The position numbers were made by a program, and so were the translations under genes. From a virus (taxonomy: Duplodnaviria > Heunggongvirae > Uroviricota > Caudoviricetes): 38,591 bases of DNA. Below the pieces are notes generated by a model, which was given only the letters and a program-made list of their open reading frames with translations, searched no databases and was not told the DNA's origin. Each line of letters starts with the position of its first letter. Positions within the stretch are counted from its first letter, which is position 1. Shown here piece by piece: positions 2,518-28,516 of the stretch. The stretch lies in the IMG/VR virus record IMGVR_UViG_2541047697_000006; one strand, given 5' to 3'.

Positions 2518-5103
2518 CTACTCTATCTCTTTTGCTTTTTTAATTATCAATTCAAGCTCTGTTAAACGAGATTCAATACGTTCACACCTTCTTCGCTGGA
2601 ATGCAGCCTCCAACCACAAACATTCATCTGGACGCAATCCCCAACGCTCACCAGCATGTACAACCAGTTCCGTTTCACCAGTATCGTATTCTTCAAAGTA
2701 TTCGTGAACGATGTCTTCTCCTTCAGGGGATTTAGCTATAAATGACACCTTGCGCTGTGCCATTACAGGTTGGTACTCATCATCCCATTTATCATGACAT
2801 AGCAAGCCAAATCTTGTTCCATCTATCCCCTTTGCAAGAAACGCATCTCTTACCTGCTGTGCAATTGCTCCGAAATGCCAACGAGCAGTATCCGAACCTT
2901 TAGCCTTAATATCGGACAACCACTGGTAAACGATAATATTTACGTCACCCCATGCGTCAAGAATTGCATCCTGATCCACCTCCATGATTTCTGAAAGTTG
3001 CTCTACTGTCAGTGGCTTTGTTTTCAATGTCTGGTCTGAAGTATTTATTGCCCCATTAGTTGCATATACTTGCGTCCACCGTTTAGATGATGTCCCACAT
3101 GATGACGTATTATCTTTATTAGCACTTATATAGCCATTAACCTCCGCTGACTGACCGATATACGAATATGAAGATGTTGATAAGGGAGATTTAAATATCC
3201 ATTGAGCATTGGTAAAGTCATAAATACCGGTATCACCTTTTTCACTAACATGAAAAGTTACATTCCGTAACGTATTCTTTGCATCATAACGGGCGGCTTG
3301 TGTTGTTGCCCTCGAAACAGTGAATCCTTTGTCATCAAGGTTTGCCTGCTCTATGACTTCACCACCAGGCATAATTTTACCAAGGCTTAACAAACCAGAG
3401 TTAGTGACAATATCATGGGTTGAATCAATGATAATACCAGGCTGATTTCTTGATGTTGTTTTTACATGCATGACCTGTTGTGGCATTAATGTGTAAAATG
3501 TAGTTTCTCGCCCACTATCACCATCTGGTATGCCATTTGTATTCCCCATTACAAGGTCATACCCACCTGCAATCATACGGAAAAACATTGCTTCTGGTTC
3601 ATATGTAAGATTGCTAACATCTGGCGTTCCGGTATCATTTGGATCTGCTATTTCATAGGCTCTTCCTGCACCTGCCTGTATTTGCTGCACCCCAAGATAA
3701 ACACCATCAAGTGTGTACTGATGCAAATATTTTCTGGTTGAAGAATATGCAGATCCAGCCTGACAAAAATAAATAGCAGTACCGTCACACGCAACTGTTT
3801 GCATATCCCTCACAAAATCGGCAATTTCAAATTCAAAAGTTGCTTCATTACGATAATCGTAATTGTACGCCTGCGGGTTAATAAATTTGCTGGTATCAAA
3901 TACTTTTACATAATAGCGAATTTGATCTGGTGTTGATGGGCTCTCACCAGGGCCAACATAACGTTTTGCTGTAGTAATCAGCCATCGACTCATAGGGTCG
4001 GTGCATAAAACATTTACCTGATTCTCGTAACCATCTTCCCATATGAGAAAAAACTCTGGTTCAATTTCACCACCATCAGTAGGGGTGAATCTGGTGATAT
4101 ACTTTGCGCGATCCTCTCCTTTAGCTGTGCCAGCTAACCCCCATATCTGTAACTGGCCTCTTGTGTTACGAAAACCAACGCGCCCTATGGTTAAACCAAG
4201 ACATTGATGTCCTAATTCTCTACTACCTTTAGTCTCCCAAAGAGGAGTTAACTCTTCATTCCCAAACCAATTATAAGCAACAACTTTATTAACTTCGTCA
4301 CCAGAACTAACGCTGCCACTCACATTTACCAAGCAATAAAGAACACTGTCATAATAATCAAGAACAGCACCCTGTATGACAGTATTTTTAATTGTTGCCA
4401 GTCGCAACCCTGACTTAACATGATTAGGAGTAGAAGGTCTGAAACCTGTATACATCCCCTTTTTTATAGTTTGTATTCTTTTTTCAGTAAAATCAGCATC
4501 TGGCAGTAATCGATTCTCTGTGCGAAAATAGCCATTTATATACTTATTTCCATCAAAAACTTGATCTGTTATATATGTATTACCCCTTAGATCAACAATC
4601 CTTCCTGTGATTTGTTTTTCTAACTCTTGAAAAGATAATGTGTCATCGGTGATGCCATCACCTTTTGCTCCCCATCCGCGAGGGTCAGCGTCATCACGCC
4701 ACCGAGACATCTGCAATTCATGATATTTTTTAGCACCTTCCGGGTCTTCTAATTGTTGTCTTAATTGGTCAGGATCGTACTTAAGCACATTCGGAAAATA
4801 GAACTGCTGCGTACCATATGCATCGTAAACAGCCATAGAATGGCCTTGCACGGTAACGAATTTGGAAATCTGTCCGTTGTATACCGGGTATCCAGCAGCA
4901 TTGATAACGATTGGCTGTGGCACCTGAACATAAGTACCATCTTCTCGTTCCAGATATACTGGAATCTGGTTTTCTGGATTTACCGGATCTGTGTCAATCT
5001 TACCGATATAAATTTTTCCATTTGCTACGGTTTTAAAAGAACTAGCCATTGTGAAGAGTTGCGATGGCATACCTATCACAACATTTGGGGTTATATCAGG
5101 CAT
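2518..5103 (-). CDS. Tailspike protein: P22 gp9-type head-binding N-domain, beta-helix-like central domain, C-terminal intramolecular chaperone (peptidase S74-like) domain
   Basis: N-terminus MPDITPNVV...[21 protein letters not shown]...[13 protein letters not shown]...NVLKYDPDQ matches the P22 tailspike head-binding domain as recalled. [11 protein letters not shown] motif. C-terminus has NTSDQTLK followed by about 170 aa typical of auto-cleaving chaperone domains. Start chosen at internal ATG 5103 (AGGA upstream), not ORF-track start 5196. Confidence 0.85.
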
Positions 5104-5454
5104 ATTAGTCATCCTGTTTGAAGATTTAGATATTGAAGAAAACGGAATGACTGCAGACAACGATGCAATTGTTTTGAAAAATAACCTTCTATTCATTTAA
5201 AAACCATGCAACATGAACAAAACGATTATTTTACAATACTCAAGAATCTTGATCAACAGGCATATTATTTATGCGCTTAATGCGTCACTTACAAAAATAA
5301 AAACAAGTAATACCTTTATTCCTATCGTCCATGATTTTTATTTTCAAACATTATTAAATAACAATTCCTATTTATAATATCTGTCATTTAATTTTCTCCA
5401 AATACAAGGAATCGCCGCAGCATTGCCGCAGTGATGTATTATTAATCAAAAAGA

Positions 5455-5471
5455 TATGACCACCGTGGTCT
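5455..5471. promoter_or_regulatory. Candidate Mnt operator: 13-bp palindrome GACCAC-C-GTGGTC about 65 bp upstream of the mnt-like gene
   Basis: Perfect inverted repeat around a central base at 5457..5469, resembling the P22 O-mnt core (CCACGGTGG) as recalled. Confidence 0.4.
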
Positions 5472-5534
5472 TATTGAGGATGCAACCAACAGATAATAAG
5501 ATGCCGATCCACTCACAAAAGCGAGGCATCAAGA

Positions 5535-5693
5535 ATGGGAAGAGATGACCCGCAATTTAATCTGCGGATATCTTACGAATTAAAGGAAAAACTAAAACAG
5601 CGAGCCAAATCCAATGGCCGCTCTCTTAATTCAGAATTAGTTCAGATAGTGACTGATGCTGTATCAAAGCCATCCAAAATTTCAGGCTATTGA
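5535..5693 (+). CDS. mnt: Mnt-like ribbon-helix-helix repressor, interrupted by in-frame TGA at codon 53 (homology continues in frame to 5786)
   Basis: MGRDDPQFNLRISYELKEKLKQRAKSNGRSLNSELVQIVTDAVSKPSKISGY then TGA then DDAERIADEQSDLVKKMVFDTLKDLYKKPT; matches P22 Mnt (83 aa) as recalled, with Arg at the TGA position. Confidence 0.6.
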   Translation: MGRDDPQFNLRISYELKEKLKQRAKSNGRSLNSELVQIVTDAVSKPSKISGY

Positions 5694-5885
5694 GACGATG
5701 CGGAACGCATCGCTGATGAGCAGTCCGACCTTGTTAAGAAGATGGTGTTTGATACGCTGAAGGATTTGTACAAAAAACCCACCTGACGGTAGGTTAATTT
5801 TTGCATTTACCTGGGCCATATTGACTACTTATAAAATGAGATCAATATTTAATCGCCCAATAACGGGTGTATGTTGAGGTATATC

Positions 5886-6065
5886 ATGGCGAAAAAACCA
5901 GGTGAAAACACAGGAAAAAACGGCGGAATATACCAAGAAGTTGGCCCGCGCGGCGGTAAGAAAGACAATTTTGCCACCGTCAAGGACAACGAAAGGCTTC
6001 CACCAACAACAAAGCCAGGTCATGGCTGGGTATTAGATAAGCGAACTCCAGACAGCAAAAAGTAA
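5886..6065 (+). CDS. Small Gly/Lys-rich hydrophilic protein, unknown function
   Basis: ATG 5886 with GAGGT 6 nt upstream; 59 aa MAKKPGENTGKNGGIYQEVGPRGGKK...; followed by a hairpin terminator. Confidence 0.5.
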   Translation: MAKKPGENTGKNGGIYQEVGPRGGKKDNFATVKDNERLPPTTKPGHGWVLDKRTPDSKK

Positions 6066-6071
6066 TAATCA

Positions 6072-6094
6072 AGCCGGGTCACTCCGGCTTTTTG
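6072..6094 (+). terminator. Rho-independent terminator (stem AGCCGG/CCGGCT plus T-run)
   Basis: agccgg-gtcact-ccggct followed by ttttt, directly after the 5886..6065 stop. Confidence 0.6.
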
Positions 6095-6444
6095 ATATGT
6101 CGCTCGCAGAACTCAACAAGCCTGCTCATTAAGTAGCAGTAAGTCTCGTTGGCTCTTCCTGGTTCAACATCAACACCGACCCTTGAGCAGATATCGAATG
6201 CCATGTGAGCGCACTCATGGGCAATAGTAGATAGTTTGCCATTGAACACGCCTATCACATGCAAAACACCATTCTCGCTGCTCATTGTATGAGACGCTCC
6301 GTTGGCATCCGAGTCCTGCACGTCCACACCAAGTTTTTGATGCAGGCGTTGCCATTCTGGAAAGTCTCTACAAAACACAATTGTACCGCTCTCAAAGAGC
6401 GGAACGAGCATCTTTGGTACGTTTCCAATATTAACTTTTTTCAT
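6079..6444 (-). CDS. Small HEXXH-motif protein (putative Zn metallopeptidase, possibly ImmA/IrrE-like)
   Basis: 121 aa from ATG 6444 (AGGA upstream). Motif IAHECAHMAF with downstream E...ANETYCYLM. No confident family assignment. Confidence 0.45.
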   Translation of the reverse strand: MKKVNIGNVPKMLVPLFESGTIVFCRDFPEWQRLHQKLGVDVQDSDANGASHTMSSENGVLHVIGVFNGKLSTIAHECAHMAFDICSRVGVDVEPGRANETYCYLMSRLVEFCERHIKKPE

Positions 6445-6474
6445 GGTATCCTGCACAAAACTAAGGAGGTTGGT

Positions 6475-6864
6475 GTGAAGCAATTTCTTGCTGCTATGTT
6501 CTTATTCATATCTTTTGGGGCTACAGCAGAGTGCTGGGTCGTTGGAGATATGCGGGGAATAAGCTATTCAGAACGAAATAATTTCCATCCGGAAGAAGAT
6601 GGTTTTAGTGGAACATTCATCATTAAGACAAGCGGTGAAGATGCCAGCATCACATATTCTGGGACAGATGCGGGCGGCATGGCTTACAAAGCATTGTCTA
6701 AAAACTCCATCATAGGAATCGGCGCGAATGGCGAAACTCAACGCGTTATCGACTCATGGGTAATACATCCTACTGGAACAGTTTTAATGTCAAAAACCAT
6801 TTCCGGTTATGGAAATATGGATTCAACCAAAGCTTTTGTTGGAAAAGTAAAAAGAAAATGTTAG
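6475..6864 (+). CDS. Secreted/periplasmic protein, paralog of the cI-coupled gene at 30863..31267
   Basis: GTG start 5 nt after a strong AAGGAGG. Signal peptide MKQFLAAMFLFISFGATA, mature N-terminus ECWVV, C-terminal STKAFVGKV...C. Shares ECW / YSG / YKALS / SW.I / STK.FVG motifs with the 30863 protein. Confidence 0.55.
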   Translation: MKQFLAAMFLFISFGATAECWVVGDMRGISYSERNNFHPEEDGFSGTFIIKTSGEDASITYSGTDAGGMAYKALSKNSIIGIGANGETQRVIDSWVIHPTGTVLMSKTISGYGNMDSTKAFVGKVKRKC

Positions 6865-6888
6865 CGATTGAATCCAATTTCCCATACG

Positions 6889-8730
6889 TTACTGCTGTGT
6901 TGCCTCAGTAGCAAACAGCGGTCTGATGGCATTCGCAGCGTTATTTAGCGCTCTTTCATAGGCTGGTGTTCCTGCTTTGGTGTTTGCCAAACGAAGAAGC
7001 ATATTCCTTGCGGCTTTGGACTCATACAAACGCATCATTGCACCAAAGCCAGCCTCAAGCCCCATTGATACTCCAAGAGTCGCAGTTGCGCCAATCGTCC
7101 TTATCCTGTTGGCTTGTGATTGCCCCGTCTGAGTTACTACATTTGCGGTGTCTGACCTTGCTGTTTGCTGTAGAACTTCATGAAGAGCATCAAGCTCTTT
7201 CATGTGCTTTCCAGAAAAAATAGTGTTGTAAATTTCACCGCCTGACTGAGATTTAAGCTTATTAACTTCAGTGATGAACTTGGCTGGAGAGTCACCGGCC
7301 TTTTCCGCTATTTTGCTGACGTAAGCTGCACGCATAGCATCTTTCCCTTTATCATCCAATGCGCTCCAGATTCGTTTCACGTCAGATGGCTTTCTGCTTA
7401 ATACAACGGTATTTATAAGTTCAGGACTGGCTTCACTGCTTGCCTTGTTGAGCTTGTTAGCAATGTTTTTATTAAGCACCTTATTATAAACGTTTGCATA
7501 ATCGGAGTTTGCTTTAAGGTATTTTGCTGCGTCTGATGCACCGAGGTTTTTTGCAACTGCGTTACGAAGATCTTTTGACATTGCATTCTCTACCATATTG
7601 GTAGCTGCTTTTGCCTGGTTGGGGAAGACCATAGCATCTCCCTGAACATTGGATCTAAATGCTGTTCTGTGCTGACGCAAGAGATCAAACGTAACATCCA
7701 AATCAGTTGCAGGGTTTGCTAATTCTTCACGTAGGTTACGCAAGGATGTAAGCAGGCTTTGATTGGCAGACGTCCCAAGCCGTTCCTGTCTTGCGATCGC
7801 TGTATTCAGAGCATTCATGGTATTTGTGGTATCAACTGCGGCATTACCCATTTTATTGGTGACGTCATTGATAACAGCGCCAGCGGCATCCTTCCGTCCC
7901 CTTAACGTGGTGGTCAGAGATTTCACCACATCATCAGGGTTGTACTCACCAAAACGGTCAAAATAATTGCTTACCAGCTTACTACGCGTTGCATATTGCT
8001 CCGCTCGCTTTGAGCCTGTCCCGAGCAAAGCCCCCTCAGCATCCTGAGTAAGTCCGCGAGTGAAAGCATTTTTCGGCGGGATAACATCAGATGTCATTGG
8101 TGTCACGCCCATCGATTCTGATGTGGCAATTTTCTTCGCCACTTCTGGCGCAATATCACCTTTTATAGCCGTTATTCCACGCCCTATTCCCTTTGCTGCT
8201 GCGGAAAGAACACCCTGAGCGGCAAGGTTAACTCCGGCATTTTTAGCTGCATTTTGTGCGAAATCACCTTTCTGATTTGCGGCCTCTGCCAGTGATCCAA
8301 TAGCCATGCTTCCTGCCGTTCCAACTCCTGGAACTAAATACCCGCCAATTGTTTCTCCAGCTTGAGCGTAGGGGTCTGTCGGTCTGTCTACTGGACGATA
8401 GACATCATCCAATACTTTTGGCCCACCAAGCCCCTGACTGATTGCATTAATCAGACTTGCGCCACCCTGCAATACGTCAAATGGTATGTTTACCAGACCA
8501 CGACCAGCCTGTTCTGCAATTTGCCCTGCACTTTGACCACCAGTGAGCCAATCGCCAGCTTGTTGCATCAATGATGGTTCTTCCCGTGTTGGTGCATTAT
8601 TGTCCTGATTAACTGTTTTTTGCTGAACAGCCTGACCAGCAAAATACTCATCAATGGCGGTGCCAATATCTTCCGTGCTCGTACCATCAGGGAAGGTAAA
8701 TGTCTTACCGTTTGCAGTTACTTTCATCAT
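6889..8730 (-). CDS. Ejection (internal virion) protein, P22 gp16-like
   Basis: 613 aa; position and length match P22 gene 16; Ala/Gly-rich. Confidence 0.75.
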
Positions 8731-10142
8731 TCCACCGTAAATTGAATGCCTGATTTTGAGGTATATGATCCAACCTGATTCCGTGGTTCTCCTGAAGGCG
8801 TCGAATCTTGTGCTGGCGCTGCGTCAGTATTCATTGACATATACCGCTTAACGGCACTCCCCAATGATTCACCTTTTTTAACATCCAACCCCAATATCTG
8901 ACCGCCATTACGCGATTGTCCAGGGTTGCCATTCGCGCTCATCCACTCGGCTTTAAACTCATTAAACTGCGCGTTTCGTCGCTCAAGGTTTGCCATTGCA
9001 TCAAGCCATCTTGCGACCGTCTCAGGGTTATCCATGTCAGTTGGCGCACCCTGTCGAACGATCTCAACGTCTTTATCCGTTGCTGGGCCGGGAGGTAGGA
9101 ATTTAAGAACCTGACTGTTAACAAGGGCATTTTGGCGAATGCGCAAATCACGCAATGTCGTATCACTTCCGGTAAGTTTTGCGAACATGTTCTGTGCGTT
9201 ACCGAACAAACCTGTCGTTGGTTTTTCTGCTCTGAACTGTTGAGCAAGCGCACTCATAGAATTGGCTGAGTTTGATGATGCTGTGGCATTGTTTACAGCC
9301 GTCTCGATGCCTTTTTCCATGTTTACTGACAGCTTAGGTGCTTCGCTAATCAACTGCTGAGCCTTTTCCTGCGCTTGCTGCATCTTAAACCCGAACTCTT
9401 GCTGATCCAGAGCCAAGCGTTGTGCTGCGATATTGTGCCCAGTCATTGCTGACTGATAGGAAAGGTTTTGCCCTCTCGCCTGAAGTGCTTCACCAGCCTG
9501 ATTGCTGCGGATTGTTTCTGCCAGCCTGCCTCGGTCAATTTCACGACCAGCCATCTTATCCTGAACAGCAAACGCCTTTTCTGGCCCAAGTGCACCGAGA
9601 GACATAGTAGTCAGCATGTGTGATAGCTGCTCTGGATTCTGGATACCTGTCTGAATCATCCAGTCAGCATTAGCGCCAACGCGATTTAACCTGTCCTTGT
9701 TGTCAGTAATGAATTTACTGTAGGCTTCCGGTCCCTGAGAAAGAGCGACGTTAGCTCTCATGGCTAAATCGCCCATATCGTTGCGTTGCTGATCATTAAG
9801 ACCTGAAAACGCCTGTTGTGCCTGTGCAACAAACGCTGGATTTTCCTGGGCAAACTTAAATAGTCCCGATGGATCACCAGAAGCCCATGCATCAGCATGA
9901 ACCTTATTGAACGCACTAATCGCTTTCTGTTGCTGTTCCTGATTGTAAATATCAGCAACTCCAGCCAGACCACGTAACGCGGTCAGACCAACGTTATTTG
10001 CACCTGATCGAGCCAATTCATTGTTTTCGCGGATCAGACCAAGCGTTGCGTTAATGTCGCTTGCCTTTGGCGCATTCTCATTTTGCGTACCGATGCCAGC
10101 CAGAAAACCACCAGAATTAATACCCTGTTGCCACGTAGCCAT
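8727..10142 (-). CDS. Ejection protein, P22 gp20-like
   Basis: 471 aa, same as P22 gp20; synteny. Confidence 0.75.
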
Positions 10143-13925: not shown

Positions 13926-14151
13926 CTGCTGCCGCCTTAGGTTTTCGACCAGGCTTTTTACGCTGTTTTTCTTCTGGCTCTGGCTCTGGCTCTGGCTCTG
14001 GCTCTGCAACATCCTTCAGAAGGTCATCCGGATGTGCAAACCAACCAGCATCCAGATATTCCTGAAGCTCTTCGGCTTTCACGATTTCAAAGTCGTAGCC
14101 AACGCCTTTCCACTTCTTCATGTCGCCATGACGAAAGATCATGTGTGTCAT
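13903..14151 (-). CDS. Small protein with (Glu-Pro)5 repeat and basic C-terminal tail, between coat and gp4
   Basis: ATG 14151 with GGAG 6 nt upstream; [25 protein letters not shown]...[24 protein letters not shown]...; overlaps the gp4 start. Confidence 0.45.
13975..14006. repeat. Perfect tandem hexanucleotide repeat (TGGCTC)x5
   Basis: Five exact copies at 13975..14004; encodes [10 protein letters not shown] on the - strand. Confidence 0.9.
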
Positions 14152-18581: not shown

Positions 18582-18977
18582 TTAAGTTCTCCGTGCGATG
18601 GGCCTGATTGGGGCTGGTATCTTTTTCTCTTTTGGTTTTTTGATGTCGCGCATCATTTTTGCGAAGCGGCGCATCATGTATGCATAGCGAACGGCGGATA
18701 GCACGTCGTCGTTAAGCTTGACGATTTTCCCGTTTTCATCACGGTGATAGAGGCGGAACTCCTCAAAGAATGGCTCACAGGTGTTGAATACTTTGAAGCG
18801 ACCGTCGAGCATCATGTCTCGCAATTCAGTGATGCCAGGCTCAACAGCATTACCGCCATCAGGCCATGTCGCATGCTCCTGCAACATCATAAAACCAGCG
18901 TCCGCGTACTGCCCTTTAAGCTGCTCACCGCCGCCCTTCTCATGCTGGTTTCCGTCATGAGGCCATGCGGTTGGCAC
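18582..18977 (-). CDS. Terminase large subunit, C-terminal segment (after in-frame TGA)
   Basis: Same reading frame as 19002..20081. Segment lengths 359 + 1 + 8 + 131 = 499 codons, equal to P22 gp2 length as recalled. GTG at 18977 is only the ORF caller's alternative start. Confidence 0.7.
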   Translation of the reverse strand: MPTAWPHDGNQHEKGGGEQLKGQYADAGFMMLQEHATWPDGGNAVEPGITELRDMMLDGRFKVFNTCEPFFEEFRLYHRDENGKIVKLNDDVLSAVRYAYMMRRFAKMMRDIKKPKEKKIPAPIRPIARRT

Positions 18978-19001
18978 TTTATGCGCCCATGATTTAACAG
19001 C

Positions 19002-20081
19002 TCACCACGCCTGAACGGCTGTCTTTTCTTTCGCCTTCCACACGCGTGAAACGTAGATTGTGTCTGCGTCCTTATCCCACCAAAGCTGAACCTGCGCCTG
19101 AGGGTGATCCCATCCGAAATCCATCCCACCAATTACGTAGAAGTGATCAGGACACTCGAACGGCTGACACTTAATCGTCTCTTCCGGTATCTGGAAGATT
19201 CGACCGCTACCCATCGTAGGAATACCGCGAGCACGCGCCTCTCTCTCATGCTCTGGATAGGATGCGATGATTTGCTCTTTCTGCTCGTCGGTATAGTGCT
19301 CAGCGTCATAGATGGTCATGTTGACCACTTTCTGCGACTTGCTGGGGTTCTTCAGGAACTTGGTAACAACGTCAGACATCCCCATCAGCGGGGTAAACGT
19401 CAGAATTGAGAATTGCCCGTATTTGTTGGTACGGGTAAGCCCTTCGCCATAAATGCTGTATGGTGGTTCTTCGTCAAACCACACGCCGTGGATTGTGTCA
19501 CCCTGCCAGCGAGCACGGCCTTGCGAGTATGGTTTGAAGTAGCAGATTGAAATGCCATCTTCAACGCCATCAGCCGTGTGATGCTTAACCAGAAGATGAT
19601 CAACAAGGTTCGGAAAGAAAGGAGACTTCTTCCAGCTAATGATGTCTTCTTTCGGTATGGAACCGTAGCCAGGTTCACCATTCTCTTCGATACGACCGCA
19701 CAGGATGCGTTGAGTCGTTTTGGTTACAGTCTCGTTTGTCTCTCCACCAATCCAGAAGACAACAGGCTCATAGAAACGCTTACCTTTCCACTCACCGCCA
19801 TATTTACCATCAGCAGGATAGCCTTTTGTGCCCGGATAACGCCCGGTAAGGTGAAACGCGACTTCAGCAGCACCAGTAAATGACTTACCAAGCTGGTTAC
19901 CAGCCATAAAACATCGCTCTGGATAGTCATGCCCGGCGTCGATGAACTCACGCTGTTTGCTGTATGGCGTAAATTCATATAGCAGGTGTGTGTTACGGTA
20001 GTTCTCTTCTTCTTCGAGTAGCTCGAGCAATTCGATTTGCTCTTCGTCGCTCAGGTTATCAAGAATCGCGTCCAGTTCCAC
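19002..20081 (-). CDS. Terminase large subunit, N-terminal ATPase segment (ends at in-frame TGA 19002..19004)
   Basis: [83 protein letters not shown]... matches P22 gp2 as recalled. Walker A-like GNQLGKS. Confidence 0.85.
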
Positions 20082-26629: not shown

Positions 26630-27066
26630 GCAGCCTTGTCTCCCCATCTTGCTTTCCACTCCAGAGCCAGTCGCGCTTCGTCTGACCACTTAACGCCACG
26701 TTCTGTACCGAATGCCTGTATAAGCTCTAATAGCTCCGCAAATTCGCCTACCCGCATCCTACTGGTTGACTGGCCTATTACCACAAAGCCAGTCCCGGCA
26801 AGGTTAGGAACAACGTCCTGCTGCTTTAAGGCTGCGGTAAACACACACTTCCAGCTTTCTGCATCCAGCCAGCGACCATGCCATTCAACCTGACGAGAGA
26901 CGTCACCAAGGCAAGCCCAAAGCTTTCGATTCTGGTCTAAGCTGCGGTTGCGTTCCTGAATGGTTACTACGATTGGTTTGGTTGGGTCTGGAAGGATTTG
27001 CTGTACTGCGTGAATAGCGTTTTGCTGATGTGCTGGAGATCGAATTTCAAAGGTTAGCTTTTTCAT
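26626..27066 (-). CDS. ninB: NinB (Orf-family recombination mediator)
   Basis: MKKLTFEIRSPAHQQNAIHAVQQILPDPTKPIVVTIQERNRSLDQNRKLWACLGDV... essentially lambda NinB as recalled. Confidence 0.9.
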   Translation of the reverse strand: MKKLTFEIRSPAHQQNAIHAVQQILPDPTKPIVVTIQERNRSLDQNRKLWACLGDVSRQVEWHGRWLDAESWKCVFTAALKQQDVVPNLAGTGFVVIGQSTSRMRVGEFAELLELIQAFGTERGVKWSDEARLALEWKARWGDKAA

Positions 27067-27083
27067 GACTTCCCTCTCCCCCA

Positions 27084-27113
27084 AATAAAAAGGCCTGCGA
27101 TTACCAGCAGGCC
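27084..27113 (-). terminator. tR2-like rho-independent terminator between helicase and ninB
   Basis: GGCCTGC-gattacca-GCAGGCC stem followed on the - strand by TTTTTATTTG. Confidence 0.55.
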
Positions 27114-27139
27114 TGTTATTAGCTCAGTGATGTAGATGG

Positions 27140-28516
27140 TCATACGTCAGCCCCTTGTGCATATCGTCTGCCACGCGCAGCAGGTGCATTTGATGCTGTA
27201 CAAATCTGTCTGGCTTCATCCTGGTCACATGCAACAAAGTGTCCGTTACAGAACCGCTGGTAAACCGTACCAAGTGAGCCAAAACGGTTTTTCGTCACGA
27301 TGATTTCAGCAAATGGCGCGGCGCTACTGTTCTCGTCATATACCGCTTCCCGATAGAGCATGATGATTGAGTCTGCGTCCTGCTCAATGCTTCCTGAATC
27401 ACGCAAATCTGCGTTTGTCGGGCGTTTGTTTGGTCGCTTCTCAACATCGCGTGAAAGCTGACTTAGGGAGATAACAGGCGTTTTCAGGTCTTTCGCCATC
27501 GCCTTAAGGCTTCCGGAGATGTGAGCAATTGCGAGGTCGTTGCGGTCTGCTTTCGGCTTCTCAATCAGGCCAAGATAATCCGCCATGATGAGTGACAGGT
27601 TTGGATTTTCCTGTTTGTGCCGTTCTGCGATTGAGCGAATTTCTTCGACAGATAACCGCGAGGCATCGACTACCCATACATCCAAATCTGCAAGCTGACT
27701 CATGCCGTTAGCAACGCGCGCCCAGCCTTCGTCATCCATCGATGCAGGATTTCGCAGCACGCTAACCGACATCCTCCCGGCGTTGGCAATGCTTCGCTCT
27801 GCAATCTGCAATGCGCTCATTTCCATCGAGAAAATCAATACTCCGCGCCGGACGTCAGAACCAGGAATAACGCGGCTTGCAACGCCTTCGGCAATCTTCA
27901 GCGCCAGTTCGGTTTTCCCCATACCAGGACGAGCGGCGATAATCACCAGGTCTTCCGCGTTCATCCCTCCGGTGATGGCGTCAAGTTCTTCGATTCCGGT
28001 CTTCAGGGTATCTGACTCTTCTCCGTTCCTCAGACGCCTGTCAAGCGTGTCAGTGTAGTCAGTGATGATTTCCCCTAACCGTACAGGTTTAACCTCGTCA
28101 CGGGGCTTTCTGATGGCTGAGAGCCGTTTTACAAGTTCATCCATCGCCTGACTCGATGCGTCGATGGTTCCGCTTTGGATTGGTTCACGCATTTCATCCA
28201 TGATTTCCAGCACCAGACGGCGGTGATAGTTATCCGCGACCATTCCGGCATATCCCTTCAGGTTTGCGGCACTCGGGCAGTTTTTGCTGGTCATCAGGAT
28301 TGACATGAAATGCTCCTCTCCGCATTCCTCAGCAACCATCAGCGCGTCGATTAGGTTTCTGTTTCGCGCCTGCTTGCGGATAACCTCGAAGGCTTTTCTG
28401 TAGAGCGGAATTGAAAACGCTTCCGGCTCCAGCGTTGCCAGAACGTCACTGGCGGTTGGAGTTAATCCACCAATCAGCAGGCCACCGATAACGCTCGCTT
28501 CGATATCCTGTCTCAT
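27140..28516 (-). CDS. Replicative DNA helicase (DnaB family, P22 gp12-like)
   Basis: 458 aa; Walker [13 protein letters not shown] and DnaB-like C-terminal motifs. Confidence 0.85.

Follow-up and report, generated by a model that had tools for sequence, protein, structure and literature searches.

An opal codon at the domain boundary of an Mnt repressor homolog in a P22-like Escherichia coli prophage lineage

The mnt gene of a P22-like prophage of Escherichia coli has probably been inactivated or severely weakened by one C-to-T transition, which turned the CGA codon of Arg53 into TGA. The window, that is, the whole stretch of DNA that was analyzed (38,591 nt, IMG/VR record IMGVR_UViG_2541047697_000006), is a P22-like (Lederbergvirus-type) E. 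coli prophage with the relatives IME10, HZ41 and APC_JM3.2, and the prophage located beside thrS in E. coli A3 is 99.8% identical to it over the whole length. The stop allele is an ordinary pseudogene or hypomorph, and public databases already list it under two descriptions, a pseudogene and a 52-aa "regulatory protein Mnt". The features of the locus are listed in Table 1.

Table 1. Features of the mnt locus and of other regions of the window mentioned in the text.
Feature	Position	Strand	Remarks
KAP-family P-loop NTPase, 580 aa	1-1743	+	prophage end beyond the tailspike gene
Tailspike gene	2518-5103	-	Head_binding and Peptidase_S74 domains
AT-rich non-coding spacer, ~355 bp	5104-5455		
Relic of gene-9 ribosome-binding site and start, P22 type	5377-5423	-	ATG at 5387-5385
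Putative mnt operator homolog, 17 bp, ATGACCAC-C-GTGGTCTT	5456-5472		aligned with the annotated P22 operator AGGTCCACCGTGGACCT
Perfect palindrome core GACCAC-N-GTGGTC (here GACCAC-C-GTGGTC)	5458-5470		sole copy in the window
Pmnt counterpart, TTGAGG-17 nt-TAAGAT	5476-5504	+	aligned in every column with P22 Pmnt (annotated as TTGAGA-17-TATCAT)
Full mnt frame, 83 codons	5535-5786	+	homolog of P22 mnt, codon 53 is TGA
Truncated mnt ORF, 52 codons and TGA	5535-5693	+	RHH DNA-binding domain (Pfam and PDB matches)
Opal codon in place of Arg53, CGA>TGA, next base G	5691-5693	+	comparison with intact alleles
Remnant of the Mnt tetramerisation (coiled-coil) domain, 30 codons and stop	5694-5786	+	PF11423, 1qey; private E65D
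orf59a homolog, 59 aa, Gly/Lys-rich	5886-6065	+	98% identity to P22 orf59a; phrog_3202
Bidirectional terminator-like hairpin	6071-6090	both	at the position of P22 t_mnt
HEXXH ORF, 121 aa	6079-6444	-	phrog_1365
Small secreted-type protein	6496-6864	+	
gp16 homolog	6889-8730	-	
gp20 homolog	8727-10142	-	
terL	18582-20081	-	in-frame TGA at codon 360 (19002-19004)

The earlier note, made from the letters alone, had read a short ORF and its in-frame continuation as one 83-codon Mnt homolog, and both the coordinates and the content of this reconstruction were borne out. The first ORF encodes 52 residues (MGRDDPQFNLRISYELKEKLKQRAKSNGRSLNSELVQIVTDAVSKPSKISGY), and beyond its TGA the frame runs through 30 further sense codons (DDAERIADEQSDLVKKMVFDTLKDLYKKPT) to a second TGA at 5784-5786. 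Over all 83 codons, the identity to P22 Mnt is 72% (codon 53 corresponds to Arg52 in the mature P22 numbering). When Arg53 is restored, the 83-aa protein matches the structure of Mnt residues 1-76 (PDB 1mnt, E 1.3e-32), and its residues 53-83 match the Mnt tetramerisation domain (PDB 1qey, E 7e-12). Since the latter match begins at residue 53, the solved C-terminal domain of Mnt starts exactly at the residue that is replaced by the stop. The Pfam comparison shows the same division: residues 3-50 of the 52-aa product match the Arc family (PF03869, E 2e-20, profile positions 2-49 of 50), and the 30 codons after the TGA match Repressor_Mnt (PF11423, E 2e-17). The similarity to the domains of P22 Mnt, whose end at the TGA would have spoken against the reconstruction, thus persists beyond it. 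Consistent with what the earlier note had predicted, the 52-aa product keeps the complete Arc-type ribbon-helix-helix (RHH) domain of the Mnt family and loses exactly the tetramerisation domain. P22 Mnt and the full frame of the window have in common the Arc-type RHH domain and the Repressor_Mnt coiled coil, which belong to one polypeptide in the Mnt family, whereas in the window mnt is broken by the in-frame TGA at the boundary between them.

Contacts of the Mnt beta-strand with DNA are reportedly made by Arg2, His6, Asn8 and Arg10 (mature numbering). Arg2, Asn8 and Arg10 are retained in the window product, and His6 is replaced by Gln. As judged from the related loci described below, Gln6 is a class-wide difference accompanied by a matching change of the operator, and not a defect of the stop allele.

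The order of genes in the window agrees with the annotated P22 map (9, ant, arc, mnt, orf59a, sieA, 16, 20; in the P22-pbi annotation t_mnt follows orf59a), and mnt, whose transcription runs against that of the late operon, has gene 16 on one side and the tailspike gene on the other, which is the position and orientation of P22 mnt and of the Mnt family. In contrast to P22, the window has no arc, ant, sar or conserved Pant and hence lacks what Mnt canonically represses. In particular, tblastn over the whole window yielded no remnants of arc or ant, the best match of Ant being no better than E 0.9 and the only match of Arc being mnt itself, and neither sar nor any other Rfam family matched the interval 5000-7000 at E<=1. 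The components of a full immI region, namely ant under Pant together with arc and sar, are therefore not found here. The absence of arc and ant had been stated by the earlier note, which had, however, placed the cluster of the HEXXH, Gly/Lys-rich and secreted-type proteins in the space of these genes. This cluster follows mnt and separates it from gene 16, at the site occupied in P22 by orf59a, hkcC and sieA, and shows 98-100% identity to its P22 counterpart. The arc/ant slot is the interval from the operator to the tailspike gene, represented here by the non-coding spacer with a relic of a tailspike start. The HEXXH ORF itself has no Pfam or PADLOC match. The stretch containing it shows 98-100% DNA identity to the region between orf59a and sieA in P22-pbi, where no gene is annotated, and it may be the "hkcC" of Villafane et al.

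This layout, with mnt and small genes between genes 16 and 9 and with neither arc nor ant, corresponds to the mnt-only "ant moron" described in phages ST64T, ST104 and L (PMC2629481, PMC8022706), and the ST160 record has it too. As ant is absent from all 65 surveyed loci with the Gln6 type of Mnt, the lack of arc and ant cannot be put down to degeneration at this locus, and the description of the region as a degenerate immI, given in the earlier note, does not hold. In 63 of these 65 loci mnt is intact. In APC_JM3.2, nothing is found between gene 16 and the tailspike gene. The window shares with phages of the ST64T/ST104/L/SE1/ST160 type the lone mnt beside the tailspike gene, the absence of arc and ant, and the same orf64/HEXXH neighbour, and its DNA identity to ST160 and SE1 is about 95% over 5458-6477, from the operator through the HEXXH gene. 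Still, in mnt-only phages of the ST64T/L/SE1/ST160 type the 83 codons of mnt are uninterrupted, codon 53 being CGC, where the window has TGA; moreover, the window differs from them in its tailspike module and in an extra spacer of about 285 bp with the relic gene-9 start.

A search of the 5104-5458 spacer for remnants of arc or ant found none; instead, it contains a 47-nt leader and start relic of gene 9 (TGGAGAAAATTAAATGACAGATAT). Over its 47 nt, this relic has 89% identity to P22; it now starts a 21-codon ORF, and about 285 bp of AT-rich sequence lie between it and the start of the present tailspike gene (5103). A gene-9 start preserved ahead of the present one indicates a swap of the tailspike module, with the junction in codon 4. 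Another mosaic boundary is located inside mnt. The identity to P22 jumps from ~60-65% to 90-100% at approximately 5695-5700, just past the TGA, so that the operator and the RHH half of mnt are on the divergent side, and the C-terminal domain, orf59a and the HEXXH ORF (~5695-6480) on the conserved one. This boundary coincides with the junction of the Mnt domains, and it explains the frequent breaks of short-read assemblies at this place and the "partial" Mnt entries of 60-67 aa.

The palindrome that the earlier note had proposed as a candidate operator aligns with the annotated P22 mnt operator (O_mnt), and its core is conserved in relatives. This 17-bp sequence (ATGACCACCGTGGTCTT in the window; the consensus operator is AAGACCACNGTGGTCTT) is a putative positional homolog of O_mnt, an assignment whose weight comes from positional homology and conservation and not from shuffle statistics. 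According to the sequence alignment, the window shares with P22, and with the Mnt family, a symmetric operator of 17 bp that immediately precedes the mnt promoter. The Pmnt-like hexamers have eight of 12 consensus matches, under the threshold of the promoter scan. The hexamers of the overlapping leftward promoter of P22, Pant, are not conserved, the alignment giving TCGGCA and TGCATC at that position, which are not promoter-like. The consensus scan also found no leftward promoter near the operator that would read toward the tailspike gene; the nearest hit, at 5256-5228, is about 200 bp away and is the only one on the leftward strand, and the total number of promoter-like hits is lower than the shuffle expectation.

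The operator was compared in 80 IMG/VR loci (L015-L094), with its position being about 79 nt upstream of mnt. The Gln6 variant of Mnt (GRDDPQFNLR), found in 65 loci, is accompanied by the core GACCAC-N-GTGGTC in 61 of them, with the central base varying freely, while the other four have no match to the search pattern; none of the 65 has ant. The His6 variant (ARDDPHFNFR), found in 15 loci, is accompanied by GGTCCAC-N-GTGGACC in 11, again with four loci having no match to the search pattern, and ant is present in all 15. Residue 6, the operator type and the presence of ant covary without exception. P22 has His6 and the half-site GGTCCAC, whereas the window has Gln6 and the half-site AGACCAC. 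His6 is said to be the contact that determines specificity, and the correlation between this residue and the operator supports the palindrome as the candidate cognate operator of Mnt.

The nearest intact E. coli alleles (LD67-1, ZH063, EC24 and TUM10008) have CGA at codon 53, and CGC is found there in P22 and in the Salmonella phages ST160 and ST-35. As the nearest intact alleles have CGA, a single C-to-T transition suffices to produce TGA, which supports the origin suggested by the earlier note. The alleles of LD67-1 (WP_000532176.1) and ZH063 (WP_001576805.1) have the same operator core and promoter-like hexamers as the window and differ from it in five of 83 codons; in particular, they have Leu12, Pro13, CGA (Arg53) and Glu65, the window being different at each of these positions. 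Among the 80 related IMG/VR loci, codon 53 is CGA or CGC in 78 and TGA in two. The identical mnt TGA is present in the complete genome of E. coli A3, where RefSeq annotates a pseudogene with an "internal stop", and it was confirmed in four contigs (ENA, JGI assemblies) of about 20 carrying the 52-aa protein. The exact 52-aa product is found on 18 contigs, e.g. in E. coli HVH 24, and a variant differing in one residue (Leu12, the A3 type), which one source names "regulatory protein Mnt", on 33 contigs, that is, about 51 contigs together.

All carriers of the mnt stop that were examined have the tailspike and neighbouring genes in common. The stop belongs to one prophage lineage, where it is identical by descent, and the product is not an independent natural short form. 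Homologs with a natural stop at codon 53, which could have refuted the interpretation of the earlier note, were found only within the same lineage, having inherited the stop. No independent C-terminal truncations of Mnt were found among the inspected database entries (P0084, P0085 and P0112; P0140 of 64 aa and P0124 of 56 aa were left out), and a scan of genome contigs for relatives returned none. Recurrent truncation, which would have suggested selection for the dimeric form, was rejected, since the 60-67-aa "partial" entries P0084 and P0085 are contig-end assembly artefacts, their contigs breaking at the start of the conserved segment. P0112 (72 aa), encoded beside arc and ant, was rejected as a truncation too, being a naturally shorter variant.

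Four codon changes, L12I (in the window type only), P13S, R53stop and E65D, set the TGA lineage apart from the consensus of 65 E. coli-type alleles; they are private to it, and none is synonymous. Intact mnt alleles have 12 non-synonymous and 13 synonymous variants; with only four events, the excess of protein-altering changes in the TGA lineage (4/4 versus 12:13, one-tailed Fisher p ~0.08) is no more than suggestive of relaxed constraint on mnt. Pro13 is conserved in P22 Mnt, in Arc and in the intact alleles, the only other exception being the allele of TUM10008, whose prophage is degraded, with a truncated capsid gene.

The prophage carries another in-frame TGA, in terL, between the parts coding for the Terminase_6N (ATPase) and Terminase_6C (nuclease) domains; the corresponding codon in A3 is GGA. 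The truncated TerL of 359 aa is found on at least 24 contigs, including a scaffold with the mnt stop. Both stops, in mnt and in terL, are UGA followed by G and are situated at a domain boundary. The opal stop in terL indicates that the window prophage is defective, its lineage probably being unable to package DNA. The A3 copy has an intact terL and a frameshifted capsid gene. As A3 combines the mnt stop with an intact terL, the mnt stop is older than the terL stop, and different branches of the lineage gained further inactivating mutations later.

Several other features of the prophage and differences from A3 were observed. The KAP-family NTPase matches PF07693 and the PADLOC candidate defence family PDC-S49 (E 3e-16); this gene, possibly an anti-phage defence gene carried as prophage cargo, is intact in the window, and a 1-nt indel breaks its A3 copy in two. 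The window and the A3 prophage differ by 55 substitutions, of which about 40, mostly synonymous, are concentrated within 26700-28305 (the ninB-helicase region), which looks like a recombination patch in an otherwise near-identical prophage. An 18-bp insertion of three TCTGGC units at 13973-13990, present in the window and absent from A3, falls within a small ORF located between the gp4-like gene and the capsid gene and represents a difference in tandem-repeat copy number.

In the explanation that we prefer, the 52-residue RHH product would still dimerise; it lacks the coiled coil through which a pair of dimers is assembled into the tetramer that binds the operator. Its affinity for the operator would be expected to fall steeply, judging from the domain biochemistry of Mnt, and P13S, at a conserved proline, may weaken binding further. 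With no antirepressor gene to derepress, loss of Mnt would have no drastic effect and would be tolerated in a vertically inherited prophage, and the stop allele would have been passed on vertically in the E. coli lineage along with the decaying prophage. As a counterpoint, an intact mnt is usual in mnt-only phages, so the loss may not be fully neutral: the intact gene in 63 of 65 Gln6-type loci, together with the conserved operator, suggests that mnt normally has some function in the absence of ant. Moreover, since the mnt stop predates the terL defect, general decay of the prophage alone cannot explain the origin of the stop.

Because the product ends precisely where one domain gives way to the next, it may be a folded, dimeric and partly active protein. 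It corresponds to the engineered N-terminal domain of Mnt and is the exact complement of the 1QEY construct, but unlike the engineered domain, it is a natural allele, belongs to the Gln6 specificity class and has the additional P13S substitution (the work on the N-terminal domain and C-terminal deletions is cited here at second hand, through ref. 29 of PMC3325190).

Other explanations of the stop were considered as well. That the TGA is a sequencing or assembly error in a really intact gene has a negligible probability; nothing favors it except the prior that single-base errors happen, and it is refuted by the occurrence of the same base in independent assemblies from different sources and technologies (A3, ENA and JGI metagenome contigs, IMG/VR contigs, NCBI protein records). 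It is also unlikely that the 52-aa Mnt is a functional repressor of Arc size, acting only as a dimer, e.g. with two dimers bound cooperatively to the operator as in the case of Arc, and either maintaining autoregulation of the mnt-orf59a transcript or preventing transcription from entering the tailspike gene. The position of the stop exactly at the boundary, leaving the full Arc-type RHH domain, the length of Arc itself (53 aa), the operator and Pmnt-like hexamers kept intact in the lineage, and the persistence of the allele, long enough for it to diversify (L12I) and to occur on about 51 contigs, are consistent with such a repressor, but this persistence is accounted for by clonal inheritance of a defective prophage. 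Moreover, P13S affects a proline invariant in P22 Mnt, Arc and the intact alleles (except TUM10008), every private change is non-synonymous, and there is no independent short Mnt, the 60-67-aa entries being artefacts of contig ends. Mnt devoid of its C-terminal domain reportedly binds the operator much more weakly.

Readthrough of the UGA by near-cognate tRNA-Trp or a suppressor, in mnt and terL alike, would yield mostly the dimeric N-terminal domain and a little tetrameric full-length Mnt. UGA is the leakiest stop codon in E. coli, and both in-frame stops are UGA, share the following G and the location at domain boundaries, while the downstream frame of mnt is still open. However, the frame after the mnt stop is only 30 codons long and would be expected to stay open by chance over such a time, and the sole private change in it (E65D) is non-synonymous. 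The codons of relatives are sense ones in both genes (CGA in mnt, GGA in terL), UGA followed by G is not known to be particularly leaky, the sequence after the UGA shows neither a significant structure nor a SECIS-like element (fold z = -0.70), and the interval 5000-7000 has no Rfam match, which makes readthrough highly improbable. Selenocysteine insertion or programmed recoding was rejected on the same fold score, the absence of an Rfam family and the presence of CGA or CGC in 78 of the 80 loci. Very unlikely, too, is that the opal allele is a natural dimer-only Mnt, possibly with traces of full-length protein from readthrough, that still acts on the operator upstream of the tailspike gene.

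Taken as a pseudogene or hypomorph, the stop allele matters little in itself: it is one nonsense mutation, the gene affected is an accessory regulator, the prophage is defective, and RefSeq marks a pseudogene already. Still, the conservation of the Gln6-type Mnt and its operator in phages that never have ant (65 of the 80 loci) implies a role of Mnt beyond repression of the antirepressor, a possibility that has been raised for phage L by Zaworski et al. (PMC8022706). The lineage with the mnt stop is a natural knock-out or hypomorph for probing this ant-independent function. If the dimer-only allele were active, it would be a natural hypomorph exposing the ant-independent function of Mnt in the many mnt-only P22-like phages; as candidate functions, Mnt could regulate the mnt-orf59a transcript or transcription that extends into the tailspike gene.
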